Assembly (NCBI RefSeq): GCF_054482525.1 | Contig: NZ_JBTHVG010000003.1 | Direction: 5' to 3' (one strand) | DNA: 64,000 nt | From: a plasmid | Shown: positions 2,401 through 61,021 of the stretch, one piece after another | Layout: each line of letters starts with the position of its first letter | How positions within the stretch are numbered: the stretch's first letter is position 1 | The notes under the pieces: generated by a model | The model's input: the letters and a program-made list of their open reading frames with translations, nothing else | What the model was told of the DNA's origin: nothing | The model's database searches: none | Position numbers and translations under genes: made by a program

Positions 2401-2412
2401 GGGGTTCATCCC
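2401..2412. repeat. Target-site duplication (GGGGTTCATCCC), left copy, flanking IS186
   Basis: The identical 12-mer occurs immediately outside both terminal inverted repeats (2401-2412 and 3750-3761). Confidence 0.7.
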
Positions 2413-3749
2413 ATAAGCGCTAACTTAAGGGTTGAACCATCTGAAGAATGCGACGCCTCGGTGCCTCGTTAAGACGATGCCTCGCGTTCTTCAATTGCGT
2501 TTTGTAGGCTGTCAGGGATACTGTCCCACGAATGGCCACCTGTAAGCTCCAGATGACCATTTTTGTTATTCTCCACAACGAGTTAGTTCTTCTTTTCGGA
2601 TCCGGCACTTCTGGGGGGGAAATCCAGCGATGGCTGGATTATGTCGTCAATTAAAAATGCGGCGAGTAGATTAGCAAATATCCACGCTTTCGCGAGTTCA
2701 GGTTCCTTTGCACGCAAAGCATCCAGGTGCAGCAAACTTTTGAGCCGCTTAAAAGCCAGTTCAATTTGCCATCGCAGACGGTAACAATCAGCCACTTGCT
2801 CTGCTGAATATTCATCTTCCGGTAATGATGTTAGCAATAGCACATGGCCCGCTGCTTCCAGCGTTTCCGCCTGAACTACTCGTCCTTTTCGACGATTCTC
2901 GCTGAGCAGTCGGGTTTTACTGATTAATGCTTTTTCGGGAGGAAGTGATACGGCAATGAGACGTGCCGGAAAGGGAGCTCCGGCTTTTTTATTACCTGAA
3001 TTGCCTATCATTACAGTGGTTTCACCGTTCTTACCGCAATCCAGCCCGCGCAGAAAACCCATCATGTCAAAGCGCATTCCTTCTGCAGTTAACCAGCGCA
3101 ATCCTCGCCAGTGAACCCGGACGATATAATCAGCTTCTCCAAAAGCAAGTGAGCGGATACATTCGGGACGCGAACCGAATCCCCGGTCAGCAATGCGTAT
3201 CTCGTCTGCCGTTTGCGCAAATCGGTCCAGCCGTTCAGCGTCTCTGCTGTCGGTTAGCTCAAAATCAGTGAACTGACAGGTATGAGGATCATATCCCATA
3301 TGTAGTCGCCATTCAGCGCTGCCGCCCCCGGGCGCACTGATTGCTGTTCCATCGACAAGACGCAATCTCTTTCCGCTTGTACAACCCGTAACTGCGGCGC
3401 GTACAGCAAGTGTTTGTGCGGCAAGTATGCCAAACCAGTCGGCGGCATTCCGCAGCCGCTTCAGGAGAGCCACGTCAGATAATGTTGCAACGTCATGGAG
3501 CTGAGCCCATGCAGTGACTTCACGTAATGACATCCCCCCGGGGCCGTAAGCCAGCCCCAGACGTAGCAGAGTTGCAGCATCACGAATTTCGCGGCGGCGG
3601 GTTAGAGCCCCGGCATTACGTGCCGAAGTATCCAGTTCTTCGGGCTTACCAATATGGGCCAGAATTGCTGACCAGTTATCGTGAGAGTAATTCATCGGCA
3701 CGTTAAATCATATCAGGCGTAATACCACAACCCTTAAGTTAGCGCTTAT
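2413..3749 (-). mobile_element. IS186-like insertion sequence (IS4 family), about 1337 bp, with terminal inverted repeats ATAAGCGCTAACTTAAGGGTTG
   Basis: Perfect inverted repeats at 2413-2434 and 3728-3749 enclose one transposase ORF. The protein sequence matches my recollection of the E. coli IS186 transposase (MNYSHDNWSAILAHIGKPEE...). Flanked by a 12-bp direct repeat. Confidence 0.85.
2583..3701 (-). CDS. insL: IS186 transposase (DDE, IS4 family)
   Basis: 372-aa ORF filling the IS. Recognised from memory as IS186 InsL-like; the true start may be the third codon (MNYSH...). Confidence 0.85.
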   Translation of the reverse strand: MPMNYSHDNWSAILAHIGKPEELDTSARNAGALTRRREIRDAATLLRLGLAYGPGGMSLREVTAWAQLHDVATLSDVALLKRLRNAADWFGILAAQTLAVRAAVTGCTSGKRLRLVDGTAISAPGGGSAEWRLHMGYDPHTCQFTDFELTDSRDAERLDRFAQTADEIRIADRGFGSRPECIRSLAFGEADYIVRVHWRGLRWLTAEGMRFDMMGFLRGLDCGKNGETTVMIGNSGNKKAGAPFPARLIAVSLPPEKALISKTRLLSENRRKGRVVQAETLEAAGHVLLLTSLPEDEYSAEQVADCYRLRWQIELAFKRLKSLLHLDALRAKEPELAKAWIFANLLAAFLIDDIIQPSLDFPPRSAGSEKKN

Positions 3750-3761
3750 GGGGTTCATCCC
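3750..3761. repeat. Target-site duplication (GGGGTTCATCCC), right copy, flanking IS186
   Basis: Same 12-mer as at 2401-2412, immediately outside the right inverted repeat. Confidence 0.7.
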
Positions 3762-3777
3762 CCTCTCTGGATTTTTA

Positions 3778-4095
3778 ATGAGTAAGCAGAACGACGTTCC
3801 TCAGCATACCTATAGATTCCCTTTCAGGATCAACATGCCTCTACTGATTTTGTTTTGGGATGCAAAAAAAATAGGGCTTGCATTCATTCTGGTTGCATTT
3901 GGGAATATCTTCGAATGCTTCGGGTTTTCTGTTGTAGTAGCGGTTGTATATTGGATTGCGTATAACAAAGCAGCTGAGTCAGGAATAAGAGGATTGCTAA
4001 AACACAGACTCTGGTGGCTCGGTTTTTTGCCAGGTAAAGCAGTTTTTAGTAGCCGTTATTTCAACGATCCATTTATCAGAGATTTGTATTCTTGA
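3778..4095 (+). CDS. traL: T4SS protein TraL-like (VirB3-like)
   Basis: 105 aa. YRFP motif near the N-terminus and a hydrophobic core, resembling F TraL. First gene after the IS186 insertion. The track ORF start at 3748 lies within the target duplication, so the ATG at 3778 is preferred. Confidence 0.55.
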   Translation: MSKQNDVPQHTYRFPFRINMPLLILFWDAKKIGLAFILVAFGNIFECFGFSVVVAVVYWIAYNKAAESGIRGLLKHRLWWLGFLPGKAVFSSRYFNDPFIRDLYS

Positions 4096-4106
4096 TGGAG
4101 CTATGA

Positions 4107-4895
4107 ATGAAAATGCTAAGTGGCATTAACATCCCTTTTTTCAAAAAATCTAAAAAGGATGAAAACGGTGATCTTGAACAGTCATACGTAAAGAAAGATG
4201 AAAGTGCTAAGGGACGTTTTTTGGACATTAAAAAACGATTTAGCCCACAAGCTGAAGCGTCAGGTGCTGGAATTACATACAGCGCCCTGATTAATCGTGA
4301 TACAAAACTTATCCGCATTAATACTGTTTCAATAGCCGTCATTGGGTTATTGGTTGCAAAGATTCTTTTTTTCACTGACCCAGTGACGATTGTTACCCCT
4401 CCAAACATGAATGAAGAGATCACGGTTGTTGGTAACAAAGCATCGGAATCTTATAAAACACAATGGGCTCTCTTTTTTAGTACCCTTTTAGGGAATATTA
4501 ATCCAACTAATATTTCCTTTGTGACGGCCTATGTCCTCGATGCCCTTTCACCTGAACTACAGGCTAAAACGAGTGAGTCTTTACAGGAGCAGATAAATAT
4601 CATGCAGGCTCGTGGTGTTGAGCAGACCTTTAAGCCTAATGATATTTACTTTGATCCAAAAAATGACATGGTCTATGTCTGGGGTACCAAAACGACTCGA
4701 CTTGTAAATGTTCCGGACAAAACTGAATCATCGAAATGGACTTATGAATGGGTTCTCGGGATGAAAAATGGTCGCCCAAGAATTGCATATGTAAATCAAT
4801 ATTCCGGAACACCGAATATTAAAAAAATTACGATAAACGGCAAAGAGCAACTGGCAACGCTGGATAATCCGCCACCGTCTACAGGTAACAAGTGA
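4107..4895 (+). CDS. traE: T4SS protein TraE-like (VirB5/TraE family), N-terminal membrane anchor
   Basis: 262 aa, one N-terminal transmembrane segment then a periplasmic domain. Position between traL and traK. GGAG ribosome-binding site upstream. Confidence 0.55.
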   Translation: MKMLSGINIPFFKKSKKDENGDLEQSYVKKDESAKGRFLDIKKRFSPQAEASGAGITYSALINRDTKLIRINTVSIAVIGLLVAKILFFTDPVTIVTPPNMNEEITVVGNKASESYKTQWALFFSTLLGNINPTNISFVTAYVLDALSPELQAKTSESLQEQINIMQARGVEQTFKPNDIYFDPKNDMVYVWGTKTTRLVNVPDKTESSKWTYEWVLGMKNGRPRIAYVNQYSGTPNIKKITINGKEQLATLDNPPPSTGNK

Positions 4896-6166
4896 TGATT
4901 AAAAAAAAGGGCTTAGGGTTCAACGCAATTACCGCATTGATCATGCTCACGACTTCGAACTGCGTAATCGCTGAAGAATACCAATTGCCAGCAACAATTA
5001 ATAACCCGGTTGTAATGCCAGTTGGTGCTGACGGATTTCAGAATGGAGCTGCAAAAGCCATTATTCCGGGTCAAGCTGGTTCTGAACAGTCAGGTGCACA
5101 AACAAACCTTAGTGAAGCCGGTAATGCGCAGGGACAAAAACCTACAACTGATCTCCCTACCGTGCAACTTTCCCCAGCCAGCAATGCTTCGCCTGCGGTA
5201 AGCGCTATTACTGGAGCATTATCAAATAATCCTAGTCTCCCCGGATTTGACGCACAGACCCGCTCTGGTGCAATTGATAGCTATGGGAGACCAACAGGTA
5301 CCTCTTCCCAGCAGAATGCAACCAATGCGACCGCCACGTCAAAAGCCGATGAACTTTATGTCGAAGCTCGTAACCGATATAAAGAAGTTCAGCGTGTAAA
5401 TGTGCCGCCTGGTGGGAATGTGGTACTGCCAGTTTCACGAGGACTTCAAAACAGAATATCGACCAGCTTCAAGAATGCTTCTGTCAGCACTTCTACCCCT
5501 GCTGAAGAGGCAAGCATATTTGTTAATGGTGGCGATGTCTTTATTTCAACTAATACCGATAAACCAATCGGGATTATGTTGTCGGAAGATCAGGTACCTG
5601 AATCGACCTATAACCTGACCCTGGTACCGCTTGATGTTCCCGGTGCGATGATTTCAGTTACTACATCTTTAAGCCCATCTATGCAAGCCAAACGTGAAAC
5701 CTCATTGGATAAGCAAAACTATGAGGAAATGTTGGCCCGCTCCCAGTCAGAAGAACTGGCTCCATCGGATCCAAAACAAGACGATCATAAACAAAGAATC
5801 ATTGATTTATTGACTCCTGTGGCTCTTGGTGAGGTCCCTTCAGGATTCAGTTTACAACAGGACCGACTTTCTCGTATTCCTGCGTCAGAGCAGTCCCCAT
5901 GTAACTTTAATATGTATGCAAAGCTCGGTCAGAGACTGGTTGGCTCACGTGAACTTATTGATGTAATTCTTGTGAAAAACGATAAACCATACGGTCAAAT
6001 CGTTGCTGATCAGCAGTGTATGGCAGAAGGCGTTATTGCAAGTGCTTTATTTGATAAAGCATACCTGCAACCGGGAGAAGAAACAGAGCTTTACATAGTC
6101 CGGGATAAATTGTTCAAGGAACGCGAGGCCCGGGTTACAACCAGACCAAGTCTAATCAGAAAATAA
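4895..6166 (+). CDS. traK: T4SS protein TraK-like (VirB9/secretin-like) with a long low-complexity N-terminal extension
   Basis: Signal peptide. C-terminus (ELYIVRDK...) resembles F TraK (DVYVIRDG). ATG at 4895 overlaps the traE stop (ATGA). About 424 aa versus about 240 in F; the N-terminal half is rich in A/S/T/Q/N/P. Confidence 0.55.
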   Translation: MIKKKGLGFNAITALIMLTTSNCVIAEEYQLPATINNPVVMPVGADGFQNGAAKAIIPGQAGSEQSGAQTNLSEAGNAQGQKPTTDLPTVQLSPASNASPAVSAITGALSNNPSLPGFDAQTRSGAIDSYGRPTGTSSQQNATNATATSKADELYVEARNRYKEVQRVNVPPGGNVVLPVSRGLQNRISTSFKNASVSTSTPAEEASIFVNGGDVFISTNTDKPIGIMLSEDQVPESTYNLTLVPLDVPGAMISVTTSLSPSMQAKRETSLDKQNYEEMLARSQSEELAPSDPKQDDHKQRIIDLLTPVALGEVPSGFSLQQDRLSRIPASEQSPCNFNMYAKLGQRLVGSRELIDVILVKNDKPYGQIVADQQCMAEGVIASALFDKAYLQPGEETELYIVRDKLFKEREARVTTRPSLIRK

Positions 6167-6167
6167 T

Positions 6168-6629
6168 ATGGGAAAAGTTACTTTGCCTGCTCTGCTTGGG
6201 GCCACCGTGATTGGTTTTGTCGTATTTGCTTTAACCAGCTTTTACTACAGGTCAGAATATATACCAAAAAGGAGTGTATTAATCGTTCCGGACGCACCCA
6301 TTAGTATCGAAGATGGCAGTAACGCTTTTCCCGTTCAGACAGTAATAATGAACGATCCAACTCTTATTGATAAATTTGTAGGAGAGGACAATATTAATGA
6401 GGAGAATGCTTTTGACTATCACAAAAGTAACGTTTTGGAACCTAATTACAAACATGAAATATCTAGAACGAGCCAGATAGATAAAGCTGAAATGAATCAT
6501 CCATCTGTTCGTGAAAACTGGGCCAGAGCAGGTGATCCCTATATCGTTCCTCAGATGTCTGACAGCGAACGAAATCTAAAAATTAAACGATTCCAGAAAC
6601 CTACAAGTGGAGCTAATCATGGACATTAA
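6168..6629 (+). CDS. Hypothetical small membrane protein
   Basis: 153-aa ORF with an N-terminal hydrophobic segment, tightly packed between traK and traB. Confidence 0.3.
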   Translation: MGKVTLPALLGATVIGFVVFALTSFYYRSEYIPKRSVLIVPDAPISIEDGSNAFPVQTVIMNDPTLIDKFVGEDNINEENAFDYHKSNVLEPNYKHEISRTSQIDKAEMNHPSVRENWARAGDPYIVPQMSDSERNLKIKRFQKPTSGANHGH

Positions 6630-7974
6630 AAAGGCCTGGGAAAATAAGACCGTCAGACTTTCTGTTATTGGCGCTCTGCTGGTAGTGATTGTTTATATTA
6701 TTAGCCAGTCTATTTTTTCCACACCAGTTAAGAAAGAAAAGAAAACACAGAAAAAAGACATGCAGACCAATTTGTTGTTAGATGATTCGCAAATGAACAA
6801 ATTGAGTAATGAAGAAAGCCAGAAAGTATATAAGGAAATGGTTAAGCAAAACCGACTTGATCAAAATGCGGCGAAAGAGGACCGCGAAAAAGCAGAAAAA
6901 GCCCAACAGGAAACTAAAGCCCAAGTTGCAAGTTTAACTTCTCAACTTCAGCAACTGTCTCAGCAAATTAATGATATGCAGACTAATCGAAACGGCAATC
7001 GTAACTTGGATGCTGGTAGTTCGCGTAAAACGATTAATGAGCAGGCACCGGCAGCTCCTTATCAGCTTAATGCTAATGCGCCGATTAATGGCGTAAACCC
7101 TAATTACGCGTCTATCACACCTACGCGTAATAGCCCGATGAGAACAATCACACAAAGTTCCATTAAGACTAATGGTACCGATGGTGTCATTCAGGTTATG
7201 CCCGTGTCTGAAAACAGAATCAAGGAAGGCAGAGAGGTCATTGCAGGAGATAAAGCGCCTACTCGGACTGTACGAGGTGATGGTACTGCGCCAGTTGATA
7301 GCAAAGCGCGGCATGCTGCCCGAAAAGATGAAATGTTTCTTCCGGCAACATCTATTATCACTGGTGTTCTGATTACCGGGCTTGAAGCGCCTACAAGCCT
7401 TTCTTCCAAATCAGAACCAATGCCAGTAACAATGCGTATTAAAAAAGATGTCATCATGCCCAATAATTTCACCATGGATTTGCGTGACTGTAACCTTCTG
7501 GGTTCAGCTGTTGGTGATTTGGCGTCACAGCGTGCTTACATACGTGCCACTTCTATCTCTTGTGTTAATTCAAAAGGGAAAGCTTTTGACGTAAAACTGG
7601 AAGCATATGCTGTAAGTGAAAATGACGGAAAAAATGGGATCCGAGGCACGCTTATCAGCCGAAATGGTAACGCAATTGCAGGAGCTGCATTTGCCGGTGG
7701 ACTTTCTTCACTTGCCGGTAGCTTAAGCCCCAGTAAGGTATCTTCACTTAACATCGACCCTAATTCACAGGCTCAGTATCAGTCCCCTAATTTTGGTGCA
7801 CTTGGGGCATTAGCCGGGGCTGGTGCAGCTCAAGGTGGCCTTAATCGACTCGTCGATTACTACACCGCAATTGCAGAACAACAGTGGCCAATCGTAGAAA
7901 TTAGCCCTGGCCGAGCTATTACATTTGTCGTTCAGACCGGAACTACAATTCCAACGAATCTGACCAGTCGCTGA
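6619..7974 (+). CDS. traB: T4SS protein TraB-like (VirB10 family)
   Basis: N-terminal transmembrane segment, Q/K-rich coiled-coil region, glycine-rich C-terminal domain. GGAG ribosome-binding site 6 bp before the ATG at 6619. Gene order traK-traB. Confidence 0.6.
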   Translation: MDIKKAWENKTVRLSVIGALLVVIVYIISQSIFSTPVKKEKKTQKKDMQTNLLLDDSQMNKLSNEESQKVYKEMVKQNRLDQNAAKEDREKAEKAQQETKAQVASLTSQLQQLSQQINDMQTNRNGNRNLDAGSSRKTINEQAPAAPYQLNANAPINGVNPNYASITPTRNSPMRTITQSSIKTNGTDGVIQVMPVSENRIKEGREVIAGDKAPTRTVRGDGTAPVDSKARHAARKDEMFLPATSIITGVLITGLEAPTSLSSKSEPMPVTMRIKKDVIMPNNFTMDLRDCNLLGSAVGDLASQRAYIRATSISCVNSKGKAFDVKLEAYAVSENDGKNGIRGTLISRNGNAIAGAAFAGGLSSLAGSLSPSKVSSLNIDPNSQAQYQSPNFGALGALAGAGAAQGGLNRLVDYYTAIAEQQWPIVEISPGRAITFVVQTGTTIPTNLTSR

Positions 7975-7981
7975 GGTTTAA

Positions 7982-8464
7982 ATGGATAGTTTAGAAAAAA
8001 AAGAATCGACTGAATCAGCTGGACCTGAAATCACTAAAAAAATGGTGCGAGAAAGGACAACAAAAAAAATTACCTTCGAAATTGATATTGAAAAAATATT
8101 GAAGTATTTATTTTTCTTCGCCTTTGCCGTTTTGGTCATTATTTATGGTTATAAAGGCTTTATGAATGTTTACGATTACTTCAATAAACAATCACAGCCT
8201 TCGTACAAGATTGCAGTGCTTGACATGCCTGAATTACGTAAGGAATTTTTCAAGCATCACGGAGGCCGTACTGCTGACAATGATAGAACTCAATTCGAAG
8301 AATATTTCAGAACATTAATGAAGATCTACCGTGACCGTGGCTATTTAATTATTGATGCAACGCTTGCCGTTACTGTACCGGATAGTGTTGAAATCGTCAC
8401 TTATATGGAACTTGAAGATAGCTCTGAAGCGGTACAATCAAGTTCTTATAATGCAAAGAAGTAG
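7982..8464 (+). CDS. Hypothetical membrane-anchored protein
   Basis: 160-aa ORF with one hydrophobic segment (YLFFFAFAVLVIIYGY). Confidence 0.3.
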   Translation: MDSLEKKESTESAGPEITKKMVRERTTKKITFEIDIEKILKYLFFFAFAVLVIIYGYKGFMNVYDYFNKQSQPSYKIAVLDMPELRKEFFKHHGGRTADNDRTQFEEYFRTLMKIYRDRGYLIIDATLAVTVPDSVEIVTYMELEDSSEAVQSSSYNAKK

Positions 8465-9335
8465 AGGGCACCCAATAGTGAAAAAGTTACTTTTCCCTTT
8501 AATGGCGGCTTTCGCCATTATGGCGAATACGGTCACTTATGCTTCAGAGCAGGTCCTAACTAATAGTGATGCTGCTGCGTTAATGGCAAAGGCAAAGGAA
8601 GGCGGCGTTTCACCCAGTCAGATCTCGGGTGCGTTATCAAAAATGAAAGGATATAAACCTAAGGATGCCATATACATTCCTTCTGGTGGGCTATACCTCT
8701 TTCAGGACGAGCGTTCGCAGCTAATGGCAGTAACGACCGATGGCCGATACTCCCTTACTGGGGGAAGCCTTGTTGATGTAATTAAACGTAAACCTGTTCT
8801 GACTGTAGAAGAAATCAGAAATTCCTATTTTATTAGTCTTGATGAGGCCCCCTTCCCTCTGGAAACTGTAGCGTCCATTCATCTGGGAAATTCAAAGCTT
8901 AAGAGACAAGCAGCCATTTTCTTAACACTTGATTGTGACGGTTGCATGGAACTTGTTAAGAAATTTTATGCAGATCGGGACAAGTATCGGATAGATATTG
9001 TTTTAGTTCCCTCACCCGGTGAGCCAAAAGAAGAGCTTAGAAGGCTCTGGTGTAGTAAAGAAAAAGGAAAAATAAACAACCTCGATATTCTTCGTTGGCT
9101 AATGGGAAGCAAATCCGACATTGAAAAAAGATTGCTCTCTCAAAAAGAAGCAGAAGAATGTCCGGCGGAACCTTTGGTAGCGTCATTGATGCTCGCAGGA
9201 ATTTATAAATTGCAGGGTGTACCTTCAGTTGTCAGACAGGATGGTTTGGCTGGTAATGGCATTCCAAAAGATTTCGACTACTGGTTGAACCAAAGCGTTG
9301 AACCTCTCTTAAAAAATCCATTTGAGACAAATTAA
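8451..9335 (+). CDS. Thiol:disulfide interchange protein, DsbC/TrbB-like (CxxC)
   Basis: Signal-peptide-like N-terminus (KKLLFPLMAAFAIMANTVTYA) and a CxxC motif (LDCDGCMELVKK). Location inside a tra cluster, as for DsbC/TrbB homologues. Start is ambiguous: ATG at 8451 or GTG at 8478. Confidence 0.5.
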   Translation: MQRSRGHPIVKKLLFPLMAAFAIMANTVTYASEQVLTNSDAAALMAKAKEGGVSPSQISGALSKMKGYKPKDAIYIPSGGLYLFQDERSQLMAVTTDGRYSLTGGSLVDVIKRKPVLTVEEIRNSYFISLDEAPFPLETVASIHLGNSKLKRQAAIFLTLDCDGCMELVKKFYADRDKYRIDIVLVPSPGEPKEELRRLWCSKEKGKINNLDILRWLMGSKSDIEKRLLSQKEAEECPAEPLVASLMLAGIYKLQGVPSVVRQDGLAGNGIPKDFDYWLNQSVEPLLKNPFETN

Positions 9336-9344
9336 GGCTAGTTT

Positions 9345-10295
9345 ATGAACATCAAAAGATTGGTACTCAGTGCTCTGGTTGTAGGTACATCCTCATATCT
9401 TACGGGGTGCTCCATCGGGAGTTCCGAATCCGAATGTCCAGGCATTGAAAAGGGCGTTATCTGTAAAGGTCCTCGCGAAGTTATGGAGTTAACTAATAAT
9501 CGAGATGATCTGTCTGCACTTGCGGGGGAAGAGTCGGAATCGGGAAAGGAGAAATCGGCTGTCAATGACAGCCGTTATCCAACTGAAATTAGCCCTCCAG
9601 GGGAAGTCAAATATCCACAGTCTACAACCCTTAAAAATCAGCCTGTGGCTTATTCAAAAACCGAAATTAAGCCAGTTGGTCAGTTACCTGTCATGTACGA
9701 TAAAACTTTAAAAATGGGTGCCCCTACTTCATCCATTGGACCACGGCCTATTTCTGGTGTACCGGTTAATTCAAACGTAAGGATGACTAGCAGTTATAGC
9801 ACTGCCTCTTCAGCTGGTAACCCTTTCGTTCATCCGGCTGCGGAAGTCGTTAAACAAACAAGCTATCCGGTTTCTGCTGGAAATGCACCACGCTACGTTG
9901 CACCTAATTCTGATATCAGCCCTGGCAAGGATATGTACTCTCTTTACAATGGCCAGCCCGTTAACCCTACTCTCAACACTGGGCAGATCCAGCAATACCG
10001 TTCGCAAGGTTATAAACAAGCTGTAGTGGCTCCTGAACCACTTGCTGTTCTGCAACAGGGGAAAGTAATGAGAATTACTTTTGCACCTTATACCGATGAT
10101 AACGATGCGCTTAATCTTCCCGGCTACGTTTATGTCAACGTAAAACCGCAAACATGGATTGCTGGCAAGAATTCGACCTCAAACCCAGCTCGCATAGTTC
10201 CTTTAGAAGTACAGGATGCGGCCCGGGAAAATATGCAGCAGCAACAAAAAGCAACTAAAGCTGTCTCTTCGAACGGCATTGTTAGACAACTGTAA
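9345..10295 (+). CDS. traV: Outer-membrane lipoprotein TraV-like
   Basis: Lipobox (LTGC) after a signal peptide, Cys-containing N-terminal region, position immediately upstream of traC. Confidence 0.45.
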   Translation: MNIKRLVLSALVVGTSSYLTGCSIGSSESECPGIEKGVICKGPREVMELTNNRDDLSALAGEESESGKEKSAVNDSRYPTEISPPGEVKYPQSTTLKNQPVAYSKTEIKPVGQLPVMYDKTLKMGAPTSSIGPRPISGVPVNSNVRMTSSYSTASSAGNPFVHPAAEVVKQTSYPVSAGNAPRYVAPNSDISPGKDMYSLYNGQPVNPTLNTGQIQQYRSQGYKQAVVAPEPLAVLQQGKVMRITFAPYTDDNDALNLPGYVYVNVKPQTWIAGKNSTSNPARIVPLEVQDAARENMQQQQKATKAVSSNGIVRQL

Positions 10296-10303
10296 GGTCA
10301 AAT

Positions 10304-12985
10304 ATGGAAGCTATCAATAATTACAATAGCGGTTTAAATCGCCATCAATTAGGTGGGTTTATCCCTGTTTACGATCAATTAGCAGGGACTCACTATTTTT
10401 TGATTGATGGCAACAGATTAGGGTTTATGTTTATCTGTAATCCATCACCTGGAGTTTTTGATAATCAGCAAGATGTTCTTGCTGAAATGTTCAAAATGGA
10501 TTTTCCTACAGATACTGTCTGTCAAATATCTCTGACTGCATTGCCAGACTTGACTTTACAGCTTAGTGCTTGGTCAGCTGTGCGAGGTGGGCGTATGACT
10601 GGGAACGATAAGCTTAAAGCAGATCTGCTTAATGGTTATCAGTTGGACTACTACGACAGAAGTATGCATAAGCCTTTAAAACCTGATCATGATAACCTTA
10701 TGTTGAGGGATTTTCAGGTATGGATCTCGCTATCGATTCCTTTACAGTCTGCCCTTCCTACCGAGCTGGAACATTCGCGTATCGATTCACTTTACTCTGA
10801 ACTTGTAAGTAAGTTAATTACGATTGGACTGCATCCGTTTAAGGTCGATGCAGAAAACTGGCTCTATTGTATAGATAAGGTCGTAAACCCCGGAAAGAAC
10901 TCTCGGTGGGCTGAAGGTTTTATAGACGTTAACACTATGAAAAGGCTTAATGAACAAGTTAACGTTCCCGGCCGTAAGTATACAGTCACAGAAAATCATT
11001 TCTCATCAGTCACACAAAGTGACGACGAATCTGAGCATCGTTACTTCAAACAACTTTCCGTTGTAAAGTTTCCTGAATACGTCAATTTCGGTTGTATGTA
11101 TGAGTTAGTAGTTAACTGGATGCATGGACGTAAGACAATTTTCAGCCCATTTATGATCACTCAGACTGTTCAGTTTGCCGATCCGCTCAAGTTGTCAAAA
11201 GAAAACGTCCGCTACAAAGCAATCACTAATAAACAGGCAAGTATACCTTCAGTTGTCACATTCTGCCCTCGCCTGCGGGATATGGATAATGACTACATGG
11301 CCGTAACTCGCGAGCTTGAGGATGGCGCAAAGCTTTTAAGAGGGTATCTTACTTTCACTGTTATGGGTAGTAATGCCAATTCTGTGCAGACAGCAGCTAA
11401 CGATCTCAAATCCTTTTACCTCGAAAGCCGGGTCAAAGTAGCAGATGATTCCTTTATCGTTTTCCCGTCATTTATGTCATGTCTGCCAATGTGCAATGAC
11501 CCAAAGACAATTTTCGACCTTGACCGATCCGAAGTAGTGAGCAACACCGGAGCGGCTCATATGACGCCGATCTTTGGGCCCTGGAAAGGTAATACAGATA
11601 GACCAGTACTGAGTTTAGTTTCTCGTGAAGGTCAACTCATGGGACTTGATATTTTCAAGACTTCTGCAAGCTATAACATGGTTATTGGTGCAACGTCAGG
11701 TGCAGGCAAGTCATTCTGGACAGCATATCTAATCAATAACTATCTTGGAGCTGGACCGCGATCTAATAACCTCGTTCATTATCGCTCAACATTTAAGCAT
11801 TTTTTAGAAAACGAATACCCAGATGATGATCCTGATGGTGCTCAAGTTTTTGTAGTGGACGTGGGGCGTTCTTACCAGGGGATTGCGGAACAATATACAA
11901 ACAGTCAATTTATTGATTTCGGTAAAACCCCTGACTTCACCCTAAATCCCTTTGCCTTCCTAACTGACATCACTGTTAACGACGATGTATTTAACGAAGC
12001 ACCTGAATTTACCGGTGAATCAACTTCAAACGATGCAGAAAAAGACAAAGTTGCTCAGACCATAATGGTTCTGAATCAGCTAAAAATTATGGCTTCAGAG
12101 AAAGGCCTTATCGATGATTATCAACAATCAGTGATGCTTCAGCTTATTGCAGAAGAGTACCAGGAATCCAGAAAATCAGGTCGGACCGGTTCAATAACCG
12201 GCTTTGCTCTGCGTTGCAAGAAGCATGAAGACAAACGTATAAAGGATATTGGGGAGCAACTCGGAGCATGGTGCGAAGGTGGAATTTATGGGCACCGGTT
12301 TACCGATACGTTGCCTCCAATCAACTTCGACAGCAGATTTATTGTTTTGGAACTGGAGGAGCTAAAAGGCACCCCCCACCTTCAGACAGTTGTTTTAATG
12401 TCTATCATTCAGGCTGCTCAGCATGCAATGTTCATCAAAAAAGATGGGCGTCGTCGCTTGTTCATCCTAGATGAAGCTTGGGAGTACATTCGTCCTGATA
12501 ATTCATCAGGTGCCGGAAATCAATCAAACCAATTCTTCTCTTCCTTCCTCGAAGCGGCATGGCGTAGGTTCAGGAAAACAAACTGCGCTGGCATCTGTAT
12601 CACACAGTCGTTTGAAGATTATTTTACTTCTTCTGTTGGCCGGGCCCTGACTGCTAACTCGCCTTGGAAGATAATCATGAAACAAGAAAAAGAAAGCATT
12701 GAAGCAATGAAGGCTAATAAATATTTTTCTACTTCAGATGCAGAATATGAACGAATGAAAAATATTCGTACAGTCAAAAAGGTGTTTTCAGAGATGTTAG
12801 TCAGGTTCGAAAACTTCCAAGAGATCTGTCGGTTATACGTAGACCGGAAAATGGAGCTTTGTTTTACTACGGATAGTGCTGACAGGAGTAAATTATGGGA
12901 AATTCAAAGCCGCGAGAATTGTAGCTATGGCGAGGCAATAGAAATTCTCTATGCTCAAGAAGTAGCAGCGGGTTTGGCCGCGTAG
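10304..12985 (+). CDS. traC: T4SS ATPase TraC (VirB4 family)
   Basis: 893 aa. Walker A (GATSGAGKSF). Size and position typical of F-type TraC/VirB4. Confidence 0.85.
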   Translation: MEAINNYNSGLNRHQLGGFIPVYDQLAGTHYFLIDGNRLGFMFICNPSPGVFDNQQDVLAEMFKMDFPTDTVCQISLTALPDLTLQLSAWSAVRGGRMTGNDKLKADLLNGYQLDYYDRSMHKPLKPDHDNLMLRDFQVWISLSIPLQSALPTELEHSRIDSLYSELVSKLITIGLHPFKVDAENWLYCIDKVVNPGKNSRWAEGFIDVNTMKRLNEQVNVPGRKYTVTENHFSSVTQSDDESEHRYFKQLSVVKFPEYVNFGCMYELVVNWMHGRKTIFSPFMITQTVQFADPLKLSKENVRYKAITNKQASIPSVVTFCPRLRDMDNDYMAVTRELEDGAKLLRGYLTFTVMGSNANSVQTAANDLKSFYLESRVKVADDSFIVFPSFMSCLPMCNDPKTIFDLDRSEVVSNTGAAHMTPIFGPWKGNTDRPVLSLVSREGQLMGLDIFKTSASYNMVIGATSGAGKSFWTAYLINNYLGAGPRSNNLVHYRSTFKHFLENEYPDDDPDGAQVFVVDVGRSYQGIAEQYTNSQFIDFGKTPDFTLNPFAFLTDITVNDDVFNEAPEFTGESTSNDAEKDKVAQTIMVLNQLKIMASEKGLIDDYQQSVMLQLIAEEYQESRKSGRTGSITGFALRCKKHEDKRIKDIGEQLGAWCEGGIYGHRFTDTLPPINFDSRFIVLELEELKGTPHLQTVVLMSIIQAAQHAMFIKKDGRRRLFILDEAWEYIRPDNSSGAGNQSNQFFSSFLEAAWRRFRKTNCAGICITQSFEDYFTSSVGRALTANSPWKIIMKQEKESIEAMKANKYFSTSDAEYERMKNIRTVKKVFSEMLVRFENFQEICRLYVDRKMELCFTTDSADRSKLWEIQSRENCSYGEAIEILYAQEVAAGLAA

Positions 12986-25397: not shown

Positions 25398-25952
25398 ATG
25401 GCAACTTCAGACTTCTCTCTTAAAAACCATAATGTAAAAGCTTTTGGTCAGGATGCAGCACTTGTCATTGAGATGAACAATGAAGATGTTAGCTCATCAA
25501 AACCTTCACCTTTTTCAAATGAGATTGATAATTATTATCTTACATTGCACGTCGCTCCGAGGAACGCCAAAAAAGATTATGACTGGGGCTCAAACCGTTC
25601 TGTACTTCTAAAATTGTCGACGAATGAAGTTATGCAGATGGCATCTGTATTTCTTAGAATCATGCATACTTTAAAAATTGATAAGAGGAAAACCTCACAT
25701 CATGGCCACGTCGTATACAAAAATATAAGCGTTACCCCAAACGAGAGGGGCGGTTTGTTGTTATCAGCAGGGATAGTTCCAGTCGATAAAGACGGCTTAA
25801 AACCCTTCATGCACATGGTCCCCGTCTCACAAATGGACTGCGTTAAAATTGGCCTCTACATACTTGGATATCTTGCTCAAAAAACGCCTTGGGTAAGCTC
25901 CGAGTCTATAATTACCGCGCTTCGCTTATCTGAAGCCAAGAATTCAAAATAG
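25398..25952 (+). CDS. Hypothetical protein
   Basis: About 184-aa ORF. Confidence 0.3.
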   Translation: MATSDFSLKNHNVKAFGQDAALVIEMNNEDVSSSKPSPFSNEIDNYYLTLHVAPRNAKKDYDWGSNRSVLLKLSTNEVMQMASVFLRIMHTLKIDKRKTSHHGHVVYKNISVTPNERGGLLLSAGIVPVDKDGLKPFMHMVPVSQMDCVKIGLYILGYLAQKTPWVSSESIITALRLSEAKNSK

Positions 25953-26071
25953 CGTATTAACATACGGAATACATGGAAAAATACAGGTTTTTTTAAATAT
26001 TATACGAACGGATATTTCTGTTTTTCATCGTAAAGTGAGTTTAATTTTGCTCAGAAAAACAGGTATTCGTC

Positions 26072-29000
26072 ATGAGAAAATCAGGTTTAGGTTTAGCCCT
26101 GTTGTTTTCTTTAATTGCTCCGATTAAAGCGGTCTATGCCGAAGCGATTATGATTTCAGGAAAGCTACAGGCTGATTTGCCAGCCGTATCCTTTGACCCG
26201 GGGCCGGGCGACTTTGTTGCATACGTTAATTCTAACACTATCACTGCCTCAGGTGCAGGCACAGCCTGTAATGTAACGGTTGATGATCGAGCGACTTCCT
26301 CTGTTGATAACCTCGTTTGTTTTTTTGAGTGGTTACCCAATACCTTGGGATTTACTTCTAACGGTTTCACTCTTTCAGGCGTTCCCAACACCACCGGTGA
26401 TTTAAAACTACCTTACAAGATTTCTTACTTCTCTGGTTCTGAACGGAAAAAAGTTGAAATAGTAAAAGGTGAATATTCAATCAAAAGTGTGGCACCGGTA
26501 AAACCTACTATCACCGGTCTTAAATCATCCCTGAACGGATTAGTCTATGACGGCTTTTCTTTCAAATCGTATTTAAAGGATGAAGCGATCAAAGATATCG
26601 CTGTTTCTGTTGAGCCCCGCAATTATATTCAATACATCTCAATAGGTTCAGGCTCCGCCTGTGAAGTTCCTATTGGCGGAACTTCCTGTACCATTGAAGT
26701 TGGAAGCATTAAGGCCAGTGATACAGATGAACTTTTGGGTTCACGTGATATCACAATTACAGCAAACTCTAAGAATAATTATTTCGCACCTCCTGAATCC
26801 AAAAAGCTTGTTGTTAACTGGGATTATCGGCCTCCTGTAGTAGACCATACACTTTGGAATTTTACCGATGAGGCTAAAACAATCAAAGTAGGTGGCCAGG
26901 ACATCTATACCGGAGCCAAAACCGTTGCTGTGGCCGTTAAGGTACCCCAGCAAGAAACAGAAGGTGAATGGTGGCTCCCAACAGCTATGTCGCTCACTAT
27001 GACTCCGGATGGCGTGTTTAAACCGACGACTAAAGTGACTTTAGATGATGGCACTGAGATTGATTTCAAACAGTCCTGGGCAACCCCTTTACGTAGAACT
27101 TTACAGCCGGTAAGTGGACCTCAAAAAGTCGGTGATGAGTACCTCTATATCTTCGACTTAACGGATCTTATAAACGGGTCCTACGCAGCGACTTTTACAG
27201 TAGAAAATACGAGCAAAAACTCTTCTACGTACACTGAGCCTGAAAGCAAACTGATGCTGTCTGATAACCCAACGCTTATGGTTCTCAAAGATGGGCAGGT
27301 ATTAACTAAACGAGCACCCGTATACTTCCTGAACGAGATTATCGTTGCAGCTTTCCAGGGGCAGGCTGGGGTTGCTGACATAAAATCAGTAACAATAGAC
27401 AACAAAGTAGTTTCGTTAACACCTACAAATTATAGAGGTATTTACTACCTGCCGGTTGGAGACGATTTAGCAGTTAATTCGGATCACGAGATTACTGTGG
27501 TGGCTGAAAACCTTTATGGAAAAAACGTTAATTTCAGTACCGTTTTCACTTATCAACCTACTGGATTCACTCTCAAGAATCTGGAAAAAAACGTAACTCT
27601 TTACTCGCGTGTACGTCAGTATACGGACCTGCTTAGTCAAACAGCTGGTGATAAATGCACTCTGTTTACCACAGAGGAAAATGCGAATGCTTACCTCGCC
27701 TGGTATGGGGAAAAATCAGATGTTACAGCATGCTACCCTCAGTGGAACAATGTCCCTGATGGGTTGGAGTTCTATTTTAAAGGACGTACCCCGGGTCTAA
27801 CTGGATTCTTTAATAAAACAGGTGAGAATCTGCTCGACTATCAAGTCTATATGATTAACGGGAAGGGCTCTAAAGCGGTATCCGCAAGGAATCGCCGTAC
27901 TCTGACCACACAATTACCATACAACCCGATCATCTCTTACAAAAAGAATAAAGTCATAGCTGGCATCAATCCGAACACTGCTCTGGCTTATACGACCGGG
28001 GGGGAGGCCGCTCGAATATTAGCGAAGGTGGTACCAGCTGACGTTACGATGATCGTCTCTCAAAACGGCTCTGAGGCTGTCAAAACGTCATTTAAAAATC
28101 GTTCCTCAAACAACGATGCAACGACCTTTGTACAAAGGGTTAAGGTTGCTGCTGCACCATTGTGGACAAAGAACGTCTTTGACATAGCTGTAGAATACTC
28201 AAAGGATCCAGAATTAAGAACTACAGACACACTCAACGTATATACGGTGCCTGATTTCAATATTCGAGCATCGATGGAAGTGGATGACAGAAAAACAGCC
28301 ACATCTCTTGAAGTGCCCTTAAAGGTAACAGTGGGGCGTTATAACAACTCCACACGTAAAAGTGCATTTGACCGTAAAACAATGGGAGAATGGGACGTCA
28401 CGATATACTCGCAAAAAAGTGTATACGGCAAAGATCCAGAAACAGGCCGTTATAAAACTACATACGAAAGAACTGCGCTGACTGAAGCATTGCCGGTCAA
28501 TGATGCGGGCATTGTCGAAACCAAGATTAAAATTGAAAATATGGATCTGGGTAATATGCGTCTGGTTGGTGTGGCTAAGGTCAGATCGCCATTCTCTGAT
28601 TTTGAAATGAAACGTGAGACCAGTGCTGTAGGCATTCGAATCTATAAAGGTGAGGAACTGGAGGGTAACCTGTCGAAAAGCCTTATTATCGGAAGGATCC
28701 CACTTAGTACTCTGGTAAGCTTCAAATCTGCCAGTACTGCTAACTCTGACGCACTTGCCCCCACCGAATGGCAGCAGTCCTCTGATAATGGTCAAACCTG
28801 GAATATGCTTTCCGACATGACCGGAAAGAGAAGTGTAAGTATCAAAAAGACAGAAGTAGGAAAGTGGCTTTATAGGGCAAAAATGACCAATAAATTCACA
28901 TCTAAGGTTTCCTACACAGATGCCTTAACGGTAGTTACCTACAAGCAGCCTAAGCTCAGTATAGATGTGACAGACATTCTTCAGGGCTCAGATGTACCTG

Positions 29001-60860: not shown

Positions 60861-61021
60861 CGGGATACACTGGTTTTAATTACAGGTCATTTTAGCACTC
60901 ATGTACCTGGTTATGAACAGGGTGGAAACAACGAAAAAGGTTGTGAAATCGTTAGGCTTAAGTGAAAAATGATATTAAGATTATCCTTGGCCAGTTGAGG
61001 CCTGTCTAAAGAAGGTTGATT

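Follow-up and report, generated by a model that had tools for sequence, protein, structure and literature searches.

The window, that is, the whole 64,000-nucleotide stretch of plasmid DNA analyzed here, comes from an IncHI2 plasmid of the R478 type, a common kind of resistance plasmid. The part under study (4895-10295) is 100% identical to hundreds of database plasmids, and many IncHI2 plasmids among them carry TraK and TrhV annotations. It begins with trhK (4895..6166, plus strand), an intact ORF of 423 codons plus stop that PGAP names "type-F conjugative transfer system secretin TraK," and ends with trhV (9345..10295, plus strand), an intact ORF of 316 codons plus stop encoding a TraV/VirB7-like outer-membrane lipoprotein (PGAP, "IncHI-type conjugal transfer lipoprotein TrhV"). 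Four context genes outside the claim, all on the plus strand, together span 6168..9335 within this range and were taken from the PGAP annotation of an identical plasmid: htdO (6168-6629; NCBIfam HtdO, 2e-63), trhB (VirB10-like, 6619-7974; Pfam TrbI, 5.8e-23), an ORF of 160 aa (7982-8464), and htdT (DsbC-like, 8583-9335). Compared with R478, protein identity is 99.5%, with two substitutions each in TrhK and TrhV and zero indels, and no length polymorphism of their extensions was seen within IncHI2. The genes are already annotated, and the length feature is already known in kind and present in relatives on many other plasmids.

Translation of trhK may start at ATG 4895 (423 aa, the PGAP choice), which overlaps the trhE stop codon as TGATG, or at GTG 4892 (424 aa). 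Sequence and alignment both define a Sec signal peptide (aa 1-26, 4895..4972; MIKKKGLGFNAITALIMLTTSNCVIA then EE), whose n-region contains KKK, whose core is hydrophobic, and whose cleavage motif is V-I-A (..CVIA then EE). All homologues have signal peptides that line up with it. A conserved peptide at the mature N-terminus (aa 27-45, 4973..5029; EYQLPATINNPVVMPVGAD) precedes a compositionally biased spacer (aa 46-150, 5030..5344). The N-terminal core domain (aa 151-257, 5345..5665) consists of a lead-in helix and a beta-sandwich; its AF2 strands lie at 165-256 (pLDDT 84-92), it is 97% identical between IncHI1 and IncHI2, and it is covered by the profile alignment to 7OKO, where its counterpart is pED208 TraK_NT, Q25-E120 (PMC8770708). 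Next comes a charged, predicted helical inter-domain insertion (aa 258-298, 5666..5788; AF2 helix 261-288, pLDDT about 89-90), opposite which the F, IncC, and 7OKO alignments are gapped. The C-terminal domain (TraK_C, aa 299-404, 5789..6106) has pLDDT values of 86-94 and a profile match to 7SPB TraK 125-238, while its Pfam match (PF23536, aa 300-404, E = 2.6e-5) scores 24.7 bits, under the 28.5 cut-off. The C-terminal tail (aa 405-423, 6107..6163; ..RVTTRPSLIRK) is absent from F TraK, which ends earlier, and its R417, P418, and L420 hardly vary across the family, IncC included. In the AF2 model built with family alignments, most of the core (150-423) reaches a pLDDT of 85-94. All these features lie on the plus strand.

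The TrhK spacer differs in composition from the rest of the protein. S/T/Q/N/P/A/G make up 76% of aa 46-150 versus 43% elsewhere (binomial p = 6.5e-12), F/W/Y/L/I/M/C account for 11%, and charged residues account for 10%. AF2 assigns pLDDT values below 50 to 22-88 and 134-147 and values of 54-73 to 89-133, with a helix at 100-111; the FoldIndex (charge-hydropathy) value is near zero and not clearly "unfolded." No Pfam match to the spacer was found even at E = 10. Between IncHI2 and IncHI1, aa 46-150 have a dN of 0.32 compared with 0.03-0.05 in the core, and the spacer is 59% identical with 13 query residues unaligned, whereas the preceding peptide (aa 27-45) is 89% identical. Indels occur throughout the spacer in the homologue alignment, and two conserved islands stand out, KPTTxLP..LSxxSxxSPAVxxITxAL (about aa 81-111) and DxYGRP (about aa 128-133); the SPAV..IT..AL island is kept in IncHI1B, where overall identity is about 52%. 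Of 142 TraK representatives clustered at 50% identity, 83 carry a related [IL]P[VA]x[VIP] motif after the signal peptide, compared with 18±4 when sequences are shuffled; this enrichment is somewhat circular because the regex was written after viewing the sequences. This motif lies 16-176 aa away from the TraK core across representatives, and AF2 gave the N-terminal TrhK peptide no confident contact (pLDDT < 50).

In trhV, an AAGG lies 7-8 nt upstream of the ATG. The lipoprotein signal (lipobox L-T-G-C, Cys22) and the N-terminal domain (aa 22-56) together occupy 9345..9512, and L19, G21, C22, C31, and C40 are nearly invariant. This region aligns to pED208 TraV 4-55, which takes in C18 and the NT domain C18-K55 (PMC8770708). 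Identity between IncHI1 and IncHI2 is 94% in the NT domain and 71% in the signal peptide (aa 1-21). The expanded inter-domain linker (aa 57-225, 9513..10019) consists of 58% STQNPAG (p = 8e-5), a weaker bias than in TrhK and close to the 57% of the F TraV linker; AF2 gives pLDDT values below 50 at 53-79 and 81-196. Across homologues of 203-316 aa, the linker changes length by large indels. For aa 57-195, IncHI1 and IncHI2 share 68% identity with a dN of 0.22 and a dN/dS of about 0.13, a ratio obtainable for few segments only, because dS between the two groups is saturated in most regions. Three islands are retained within the linker, YPxQIxPPGxVxYPKS (about aa 77-92), xPRPI (about aa 132-136), and DLYSxxNGQPVNPxL..QQYRxQGYKQ (about aa 196-225). 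The C-terminal domain (aa 226-275, 10020..10169; ..VMRITFAPYTDDNDALNLPGYVYVNVKPQTWIAG) contains AF2 strands at 240-246 and 260-266 (pLDDT 71-76) and aligns to pED208 TraV 165-199, and the Pfam TraV match spans aa 213-271. Finally, a conserved C-terminal tail of 41 aa (aa 276-316, 10170..10292; NPARIVPLEVQDAARENMQQQQK..) shows 98% identity when IncHI1 is compared with IncHI2 (dN/dS about 0.006), with A282, R283, I284, P286, and L287 nearly invariant; 42 aa follow the W..G motif in TrhV versus 5 aa in F TraV. These features are likewise encoded on the plus strand.

The homology to TraK and TraV claimed in the preliminary description is borne out by Pfam, by family profiles against solved structures, and by fold matches. 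The Pfam match is sub-threshold for TraK_C and above threshold for TraV (PF09676, 47 bits, cut-off 21; TIGR02747, 45.8, cut-off 44.75); the profiles matched TraK in 7OKO (E = 7e-18) and TraV in 7OKN (E = 1e-10), and the top Foldseek matches of TrhK were the TraK chains of 7OKO and 7SPB. Both proteins are indeed much larger than their F counterparts. TrhK (423 aa) exceeds F TraK (242 aa) by 181 aa, made up of an N-terminal extension of about 125 aa (aa 27-150), about 30 aa inserted into the inter-domain linker and confidently predicted as helix, and about 15 aa of C-terminal tail. TrhV (316 aa) exceeds F TraV (171 aa) by 145 aa, about 98 aa in the NT-CT linker and about 37 aa in the highly conserved C-terminal tail. 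Composition and AF2 agree with the earlier view that most of this extra length is biased, predicted-disordered sequence. The term "low complexity" holds only in part: the compositional bias is real, but the TrhK helix and the two tails are not low-complexity. Because a strict SEG-like entropy test flags only short stretches (TrhK 92-105, or 77-120 when the window is lengthened; TrhV 55-73), "compositionally biased" is the better term, and no DNA tandem repeats were found under the TrhK spacer or the TrhV linker. Overall, the earlier observation is confirmed as real and its interpretation as supported.

The extensions are common to IncHI1, IncHI2, and IncHI1B plasmids, in keeping with their description as typical of H-type systems. 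The Tra2 region (AC operon) of IncHI1 R27/pHCM1 has the same order, trhL-trhE-trhK-htdO-trhB-orf-htdT-trhV-trhC, and the same domain layout and extensions; overall identity is about 80% (92-97% in core domains), and the differences are a biased TrhK spacer 13 aa shorter and 59% identical and a TrhV linker 68% identical. IncHI1B shares the layout. The TraK/TraV sizes are 410/316 aa in IncHI1 pHCM1, 389/245 in IncHI1B, 345/188 in a Klebsiella electrica plasmid, and 305/192 in IncC, and Rts1 (IncT) has a TraK of 388 aa and a TraV of only 196 aa (PMC10838148). These other MOBH-linked MPF_F elements (IncC and the K. electrica plasmid here, Rts1/IncT from the literature) also carry a TraK N-terminal extension after the signal peptide, an [IL]PV(V/E)P motif at that position, an RPSL-type TraK tail, and an (A/V)xIRP(L/M)-type TraV tail; however, the extensions of IncC and the K. 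electrica plasmid are shorter than those of IncHI2, and htdO and htdT are missing between the genes. N-terminal extensions are in fact common in non-F TraK, with a median N-part of 102 aa (n = 142 representatives; range, 14-307 aa). The extended-TraK trait is not H-specific but graded across non-F TraK, including IncC, Rts1, and many metagenomic relatives.

In F/pED208, TraK (7OKO, 7SPB) is Sec-exported and periplasmic like TrhK, is built from an NT beta-sandwich, a linker, and a CT domain (profile E = 7e-18, Foldseek E = 5e-15), and is encoded between traE and traB, as trhK is here. The F TraK NT domain directly follows the signal peptide, whereas TrhK has about 125 aa inserted before it; the flexible pED208 linker of 15 aa (E120-Q134; PMC8770708) is replaced by a helical segment of about 41 aa, and the tail containing RPSL is extra. 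Similarly, F/pED208 TraV (7OKN, 7SPB, and others) shares with TrhV the lipobox Cys, an NT domain with two conserved Cys, a P/T/S/A-rich flexible linker, and a CT beta-strand domain. The distance from the NT-domain marker to the start of the CT domain is about 192 aa in TrhV versus about 94 aa in F TraV (the pED208 loop K55-V150 measures about 95 aa; PMC8770708), and F TraV ends 5 aa past the CT domain, where TrhV has its conserved tail. More remotely, VirB9 (R388 TrwF, X. citri) and Legionella DotH have the two-domain TraK-core fold in common (Foldseek E = 1e-7 to 3e-5). In these minimal T4SSs (VirB9/VirB7; TrwF/TrwH in R388) and DotH, a lipoprotein and a VirB9-like subunit likewise build the outer-membrane core, with only remote sequence similarity and with other symmetry and stoichiometry.

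According to these comparisons, TrhK and TrhV are the IncHI2 orthologues of TraK (VirB9-like) and TraV (VirB7-like), and very probably their extra length serves as connectors, in which the islands may act as docking peptides. Along with TrhB, they would make up the core complex in the outer membrane of a conjugation machine of the F type (MPF_F); their folded modules match those of pED208, and the added length sits in the connectors. In pED208, the NT domain of TraV attaches to the TraB barrel within the 17-fold central cone, and its CT domain makes up the belt of the outer ring, which is 13-fold (PMC8770708, PMC8617172); the loop K55-V150 is flexible, a short segment of it contacts TraK_CT, and removing TraV 54-155 does not impair transfer (PMC8770708). 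In TrhV, this NT-CT loop is roughly doubled, by about 98 aa over F, with the conserved 41-aa tail added. TrhK, which by analogy with F would be present in 26 copies per machine, has a mostly disordered chain of about 125 aa ahead of its beta-sandwich, the module of the lower periplasmic ring; its inter-domain linker has grown into a predicted helix, and it gains a short conserved tail.

It could instead be that the extensions are neutral filler joining domains and that the islands reflect recent common ancestry only. We regard this as unlikely, though it deserves weight: indels make lengths vary widely (203-316 aa for TrhV-like proteins, 14-307 aa for the TraK N-part), the dN of the extensions is 4-10 times that of the domains, Pfam finds no domain in the extension, and the pED208 TraV linker is deletable without phenotype (PMC8770708), which suggests that this stretch, if no other, might lack a specific role. 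However, the TrhK post-signal peptide remains 89% identical despite saturated synonymous sites, 83 of the 142 representatives have a related motif at that position (18±4 in shuffles), and the SPAV..IT..AL island persists in IncHI1B; moreover, the dN/dS of the TrhV linker is about 0.13 and not about 1, and lengths do not vary within IncHI2. A folded domain unrecognized by sequence search in the TrhK extension (peptidoglycan-binding or secretin-type N, for example) would fit the moderate pLDDT and short helices of 89-133, but is very improbable given the absent Pfam match, the pLDDT below 50 on both sides, the 11% share of F/W/Y/L/I/M/C, and the indels all along the segment. Significant fold-search matches are all TraK, VirB9, or DotH cores; their alignments have 248-254 columns for targets about 216 aa long, as would fit a match to the core alone.

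We could also imagine that the true starts lie downstream and that the real proteins are F-sized, and the ORF list does start TrhK one codon early (GTG 4892) and HtdT 77 codons earlier than PGAP; beyond the general over-extension risk of longest ORFs, no specific support for this artefact was found. The Sec signal peptide and the lipobox stand at the annotated N-termini of two proteins that both need export, and mis-called starts therefore do not account for the extra length. The trhE overlap of the trhK ATG, the AAGG before trhV, the PGAP starts, more than 30 homologous sequences aligning from Met1 through the extensions, and in-frame purifying selection on the extension all argue the same way, and we reject this reading as next to impossible. 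IncHI and IncT (Rts1) plasmids show thermosensitive transfer, and IncC is not known to do so. Long disordered segments might make H-type core assembly temperature-dependent and add a post-translational part to this phenotype in IncHI (and IncT), an idea that we consider very improbable. It draws on a correlation of few points, a long TraK in IncHI (389-423 aa) and Rts1 (388 aa; PMC10838148) against 305 aa in IncC. Thermoregulation in R27 is largely transcriptional, via H-NS, HtdA, and TrhR/TrhY; trhK and trhV, transcribed within the AC operon, themselves fall at 37 °C, with transcript levels 4.6-fold (trhK) and 2.5-fold (trhV) higher at 25 °C (PMC7366339). Long TraK N-parts are also found across many unrelated representatives, and the sequence carries no sign of a temperature switch.

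Returning to extended connectors as the preferred reading, the extensions evolve fast and are rich in indels yet constrained, and they are not pure filler, since conserved islands are carried within them. We infer that the biased segments serve as length-tolerant flexible tethers and that partners in the machine dock onto the conserved islands. The candidates would be the TrhK post-signal peptide, the SPAVxxITxAL helix, and the TrhV YPxQIxPPG and PRPI motifs.

Compared with their F counterparts (TraK, 242 aa; TraV, 171 aa), the TraK homologue TrhK and the TraV homologue TrhV of this IncHI2 plasmid are larger by 181 and 145 aa, respectively, in agreement with the preliminary description. The trhK gene occupies 4895-6166 on the plus strand as an ORF of 423 aa counted from ATG (an earlier count of 424 aa began at a GTG one codon upstream), and trhV occupies 9345-10295 on the same strand with 316 aa. 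If the starts had been mis-called, the true proteins would be F-sized, but this explanation is excluded: at their annotated N-termini TrhK carries a Sec signal peptide of the usual kind (MIKKKGLGFNAITALIMLTTSNCVIA|EE) and TrhV a lipobox (LTGC, Cys22), trhK starts at an ATG that shares bases with the stop codon of trhE (TGATG), alignments of more than 30 homologues run from Met1 onward, and PGAP uses identical starts for both genes. An AAGG also lies 7-8 nt 5' of the trhV start. An over-extended start does occur in htdT, leaving trhK and trhV unaffected; its longest ORF (8352-9335) gives 327 aa from TTG and overlaps the preceding 160-aa ORF by ~110 nt, and the PGAP HtdT (8583-9335, 250 aa) begins 77 codons downstream. 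TrhE (4107-4895, 262 aa) is likewise enlarged relative to F TraE (188 aa). Its Pfam TraE match is confined to aa 73-227; outside it lie ~70 residues on the N-terminal side of the membrane segment and, at the C-terminus, a short Pro-rich end. Thus the enlargement of H-type components goes beyond TrhK and TrhV.

Many IncHI2 plasmids from E. coli, Salmonella and Klebsiella carry the region from 3700 to 10400 with 100% identity, and more than 1,500 records match it at 99% or better. Position 1 of the window is the start of the repHI2 initiator gene, and an identical plasmid is typed as IncHI2A, with the PGAP order pilin-like ORF, IS4-family (IS421/IS186) transposase, TraL, TraE, TraK, HtdO, TrhB, hypothetical ORF, HtdT, TrhV and TraC. 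The features of an IncHI-type Tra2 region are found here: htdO and htdT are interleaved with trhK, trhB and trhV, the cluster is linked to the repHI2 replicon, HtdO matches its NCBIfam equivalog model at 2e-63, and PGAP assigns the product names HtdO, TrhB, HtdT and TrhV. This cluster corresponds to the "AC operon" of Tra2 in H plasmids, which is transcribed in R27 at higher levels at 25 than at 37 °C (4.6-fold for trhK and 2.5-fold for trhV) (PMC7366339). Relative to the prototype R478, the Tra2 region is collinear except for one IS, and TrhK and TrhV carry two substitutions each and no indels. Elsewhere in the window, judged by the annotation of NZ_CP047379.1, an identical plasmid, lies the usual IncHI2 backbone with nothing unusual. 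It comprises parA/parB, parM, htdA, trhF/W/U/N/I, a tyrosine recombinase and a Tus-like terminus-binding protein, and by correspondence a 1,434-aa Ig-like RSP protein (rsp, about 25800-30100) and an Hha/YmoA-family regulator (hha-like, 60770-60990).

The IS that R478 lacks is an IS186/IS421 copy (about 2412-3750) in the first codons of trhL, with the pilin-like ORF (2025-2378) upstream and the transposase at 2583-3701 on the minus strand. A 10-bp target duplication, GGGTTCATCC, borders it on either side, with junctions at 2402-2411 and 3751-3760. The right end of the IS (...GCGCTTATG) supplies an in-frame ATG at 3748, so that TrhL reads MGFIPLSG.. instead of MRGFIPLSG..; PGAP places the TrhL start 30 nt downstream instead. 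The insertion parts the pilin gene and its promoter from the trhL-trhC block, trhK and trhV included, and it contains, at 2965-2984 on the plus strand (the strand of the tra operon), a terminator-like hairpin with a T-run behind it. A simple scan of the IS end (3700-3780) revealed no sigma-70-like outward promoter. The IncHI2 lineage with this arrangement is widespread.

Single-sequence phmmer searches of TrhK and TrhV against the PDB returned chance matches only (carbamate kinase, orange carotenoid protein), and family profiles were therefore needed. A profile of the TrhK core (A3) matched solved TraK in 7OKO at E = 7e-18 (profile 3-237, chain residues 3-214, covering both domains) and in 7SPB at 1.3e-17, scores that are somewhat inflated since the 15 sequences of A3 include F TraK. 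With the AF2 model of TrhK, Foldseek ranked the 7OKO and 7SPB TraK chains first (about 1e-14), followed by DotH and VirB9 homologues. TrhK aa 300-404 matched Pfam PF23536 TraK_C at E = 2.6e-5 and 24.7 bits, under the 28.5-bit gathering score, and no NCBIfam TraK model matched TrhK. The Sec signal peptide (aa 1-26) and the position of the gene between traE and traB in a traL-E-K-B-V-C-type cluster (TraL, TraE, TraK, (HtdO), TrhB/VirB10 and, further on, TrhV and TraC) are those of a TraK, the VirB9-like "secretin" of type-F conjugative transfer. For TrhV, as a member of the VirB7-like TraV lipoproteins, the matches were to Pfam PF09676 (47.0 bits, cut-off 21) and, in two stretches, to TIGR02747 (45.8 bits, just over the cut-off of 44.75). 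Its family profile matched solved TraV (7OKN and others) at 1e-10 over chain residues 4-165 and 165-199 of pED208, and these two stretches are the NT region and the CT domain, the two modules of TraV. The lipobox L19-T-G-C22, with Cys22 as the predicted acylated residue, and the following C31 and C40 are nearly invariant and align to F and pED208 TraV. By family membership, TrhK would be placed in the outer ring with TrhV and TrhB and would be required for pilus production. R27 trhK and trhV mutants were reportedly transfer-deficient in the 2003 Tra2 mutational analysis of Lawley et al.

By aligning TrhK with F, IncC, a Klebsiella electrica plasmid and about 30 relatives, and by consulting the AF2 model, we could divide the protein into modules. 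The signal peptide (aa 1-26, from the sequence) is followed by a conserved peptide, EYQLPATINNPVVMPVGAD (aa 27-45, 89% identical between IncHI1 and IncHI2), and then by a biased spacer (aa 46-150) with 76% S/T/Q/N/P/A/G, compared with 43% for the core (p = 6.5e-12), and 11% F/W/Y/L/I/M/C. A lead-in helix and β-sandwich (aa 150-256, pLDDT 84-92) correspond to pED208 TraK_NT (Q25-E120), and a long helix (aa 261-288, pLDDT about 90) replaces the flexible 15-aa linker E120-Q134 of pED208 (PMC8770708). The TraK_C domain (aa 299-404, by Pfam and AF2) precedes a tail that the alignment places at aa 405-423, with a nearly invariant RPSL and with no equivalent in F. The N-part supplies about 137 of TrhK's 181 additional residues, and the biased sequence within it, aa 46-150 (105 aa), is mostly predicted to be disordered; pLDDT is below 50 at aa 22-88 and 134-147, and aa 89-133 (pLDDT 54-73) contain short helices, one of them over the conserved island SPAVxxITxAL. 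The other ~44 extra residues lie in the core as a helical insertion of ~30 aa and the conserved tail of ~15 aa, neither of which is low-complexity.

In TrhV, the N-terminal part is only ~8 aa longer than in F, and its NT domain (aa 22-56) contains Cys22, Cys31 and Cys40. The stretch from NT to CT measures 192 aa against 94 aa in F (+98), and after the CT domain (aa 226-275) comes a C-terminal tail of 41 aa, where F ends 5 aa past the domain (+37). The linker has pLDDT below 50 at aa 53-79 and 81-196. Its S/T/Q/N/P/A/G share of 58% equals the bias of the F TraV linker (57%), and therefore an existing feature has been expanded rather than a new one acquired. Among close relatives the linker varies by large indels, giving proteins of 203 to 316 aa. 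The tail (NPARIVPLEVQDAARENMQQQQK...), in turn, is the most conserved part of the protein, with 98% identity between IncHI1 and IncHI2 and a dN/dS of about 0.006. One database homologue from a Logan assembly (P0038, 315 aa, 91% identical) carries the segment "GKSRNRERRNRLSMTAVIQLKLAL", which matches a +1-frame ORF at 9505-9711 and thus reflects a double frameshift within the linker, most likely an assembly error.

Low pLDDT (<50), few F/W/Y/L/I/M/C residues (11%) and indels mark the extensions as predicted disordered regions. FoldIndex, a charge-hydropathy measure, was near zero and uninformative for these uncharged polar tracts, and TOP-IDP means did not discriminate the extensions. SEG-like entropy detected low complexity in short stretches only, so "low complexity" in the strict sense was overstated. 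The preliminary description, which had ascribed the enlargement to S/T/Q/N/P/A-rich and probably disordered segments, holds for TrhK aa 46-150 and the TrhV linker, but not for the helix insertion and tail of TrhK or the conserved tail of TrhV. Tandem Repeats Finder reported no DNA tandem repeat under the biased segments, indicating that replication slippage is not their source. We also compared IncHI2 with IncHI1 and IncHI1B by region, a comparison in which saturation of synonymous sites in most regions leaves only dN and a few ratios usable. Between IncHI2 and IncHI1, the folded domains had a dN of 0.02-0.06, compared with 0.22 for the TrhV linker and 0.32 for the TrhK spacer, and the TrhV linker, one of the regions with estimable dS, had a dN/dS of about 0.13. 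By these values the connectors evolve 4-10 times faster and tolerate indels, yet are constrained to some degree; within IncHI2 there is essentially no length polymorphism.

The enlargement had been called typical of H-type T4SS, and it is indeed common to IncHI1 (pHCM1, TraK/TraV 410/316 aa), IncHI1B (389/245) and IncHI2 (423/316), yet it is broader, extending to IncC (305/192 aa), the K. electrica MOBH plasmid (345/188 aa), Rts1 (388 and 196 aa) (PMC10838148) and many other representatives. Sizes of TraV in the F-like family have been quoted as "171 to 316 aa" (PMC7555446). From a core-profile search of 1.84 billion representative proteins we took the best 150 matches, of which 142 were near-complete; in these TraK representatives the part before the core, signal peptide included, had a median of 102 aa and a maximum of 307 aa; 27% of them reached 125 aa or more and 13% reached 150 aa or more. 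Their N-parts are rich in A, P, Q, K, D and S and poor in W, C, Y and F. With 161 aa ahead of the profile start, TrhK is in the upper tail of the 142 but not exceptional. We rejected the idea that a long extension of TraK goes together with an htdO-like gene, as Rts1 has a TraK of 388 aa with traK adjoining traB (PMC10838148).

Several islands are conserved within the connectors: in TrhK the peptide after the signal peptide, KPTTxLP..SPAVxxITxAL and DxYGRP, and in TrhV YPxQIxPPGxVxYPKS and PRP(I/L/V), the latter common to F and pED208. The peptide directly after the TrhK signal peptide (4973-5029) is YQLPATINNPVVMPVGAD, and its form in many non-F TraK proteins is [DE][IL]PV(V/E)P(A/V)SV. Of the 142 non-F TraK representatives, 83 carry a motif like [DE][IL]P[VI][VE]P[VA]SV, where shuffled controls gave 18±4; this enrichment is indicative rather than a clean test since the pattern was defined after sequence inspection. 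The median position of the motif is 30, immediately past the signal peptide, with 16-176 aa of biased spacer before the core. Classic F TraK has neither this peptide nor the spacer, whereas TrhK has both. From the conservation of these islands, and with the motif enrichment as further support, we consider that the biased stretches probably serve as leashes that tolerate changes in length, and that the islands probably serve as docking peptides.

In the pED208 structures, the outer ring is 13-fold and consists of 26 TraK and 26 TraV_CT, and the central cone is 17-fold, with 17 TraB barrels and TraV_NT; the flexible TraV loop K55-V150 bridges both rings, with only one short segment traceable on TraK_CT, and neither transfer nor pilus production is impaired by TraV Δ54-155 (PMC8770708; PMC8617172). 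By homology, the TrhV linker would be the same inter-ring tether at about twice the length, and the N-terminal chain of TrhK would leave the lower, periplasm-facing ring, at a place where F TraK has nothing. The main rival to the leash and docking-peptide reading holds the connectors to be mere filler that the proteins tolerate; that pED208 can do without its TraV linker speaks for it, the conserved islands speak for docking, and we regard filler as rather unlikely. A hidden folded domain in the TrhK extension is also unlikely, considering the low pLDDT, the depletion of hydrophobic residues and the lack of any meaningful match when the extensions alone were searched against Pfam at E ≤ 10. 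A role of the long segments in thermosensitive assembly of the core complex has only a loose correlation behind it, TraK being long in IncHI and IncT and shorter in IncC; the documented transcriptional thermoregulation makes this explanation unnecessary (PMC7366339).

A more specific form of the docking reading, which we consider improbable but worth stating, is that the TrhK extension acts as a "tethered ligand", in which cleavage exposes the peptide YQLPATINNPVVMPVGAD on a disordered leash of variable length and the peptide docks onto another part of the machine. Candidate docking sites would be the TraK_NT sites left free by the 26:17 symmetry mismatch, the TrhB linker, the TrhE/VirB8-like arches and HtdO. 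The idea that this peptide mimics the TrhB segment binding TraK_NT (R176-S186 in pED208) was dropped, because the PDB alignment begins only at TraB residue 200 and the "VMPV" resemblance is lost in IncHI1B. At the other end, TrhK closes with ..TTRPSLIRK (6107-6163), with RPSL nearly invariant even in IncC, and the TrhV tail reads NPARIVPLEVQD.. (10170-10292), whose IncC counterpart is ..VLRPLQ... The two C-terminal tails co-occur, and F TraK and TraV lack them. The paired tails may meet near the outer membrane in a contact specific to this lineage, and the RPSL tail of TrhK with the PARIVPL tail of TrhV could be a second contact of the tethered-ligand kind.

The genes, their names and sizes and the flexible TraV linker are already on record, and to that extent the enlargement is a correct but ordinary finding; modestly new are the conserved motif after the signal peptide across non-F TraK and the paired C-terminal tails, which we offer as small leads. 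Among the resistance genes for which IncHI2 plasmids are major carriers are mcr-1 and blaNDM, and we know of no solved structure of their transfer machine. The map of modules and tethers in TrhK and TrhV aids modelling of the H-type core complex on the pED208 structures, the design of deletion constructs and the choice of conserved surface peptides as inhibitor or antibody targets. If the tethered ligand proved true, non-F MPF_F systems would gain a connection from the core to the inner membrane that classic F is without.
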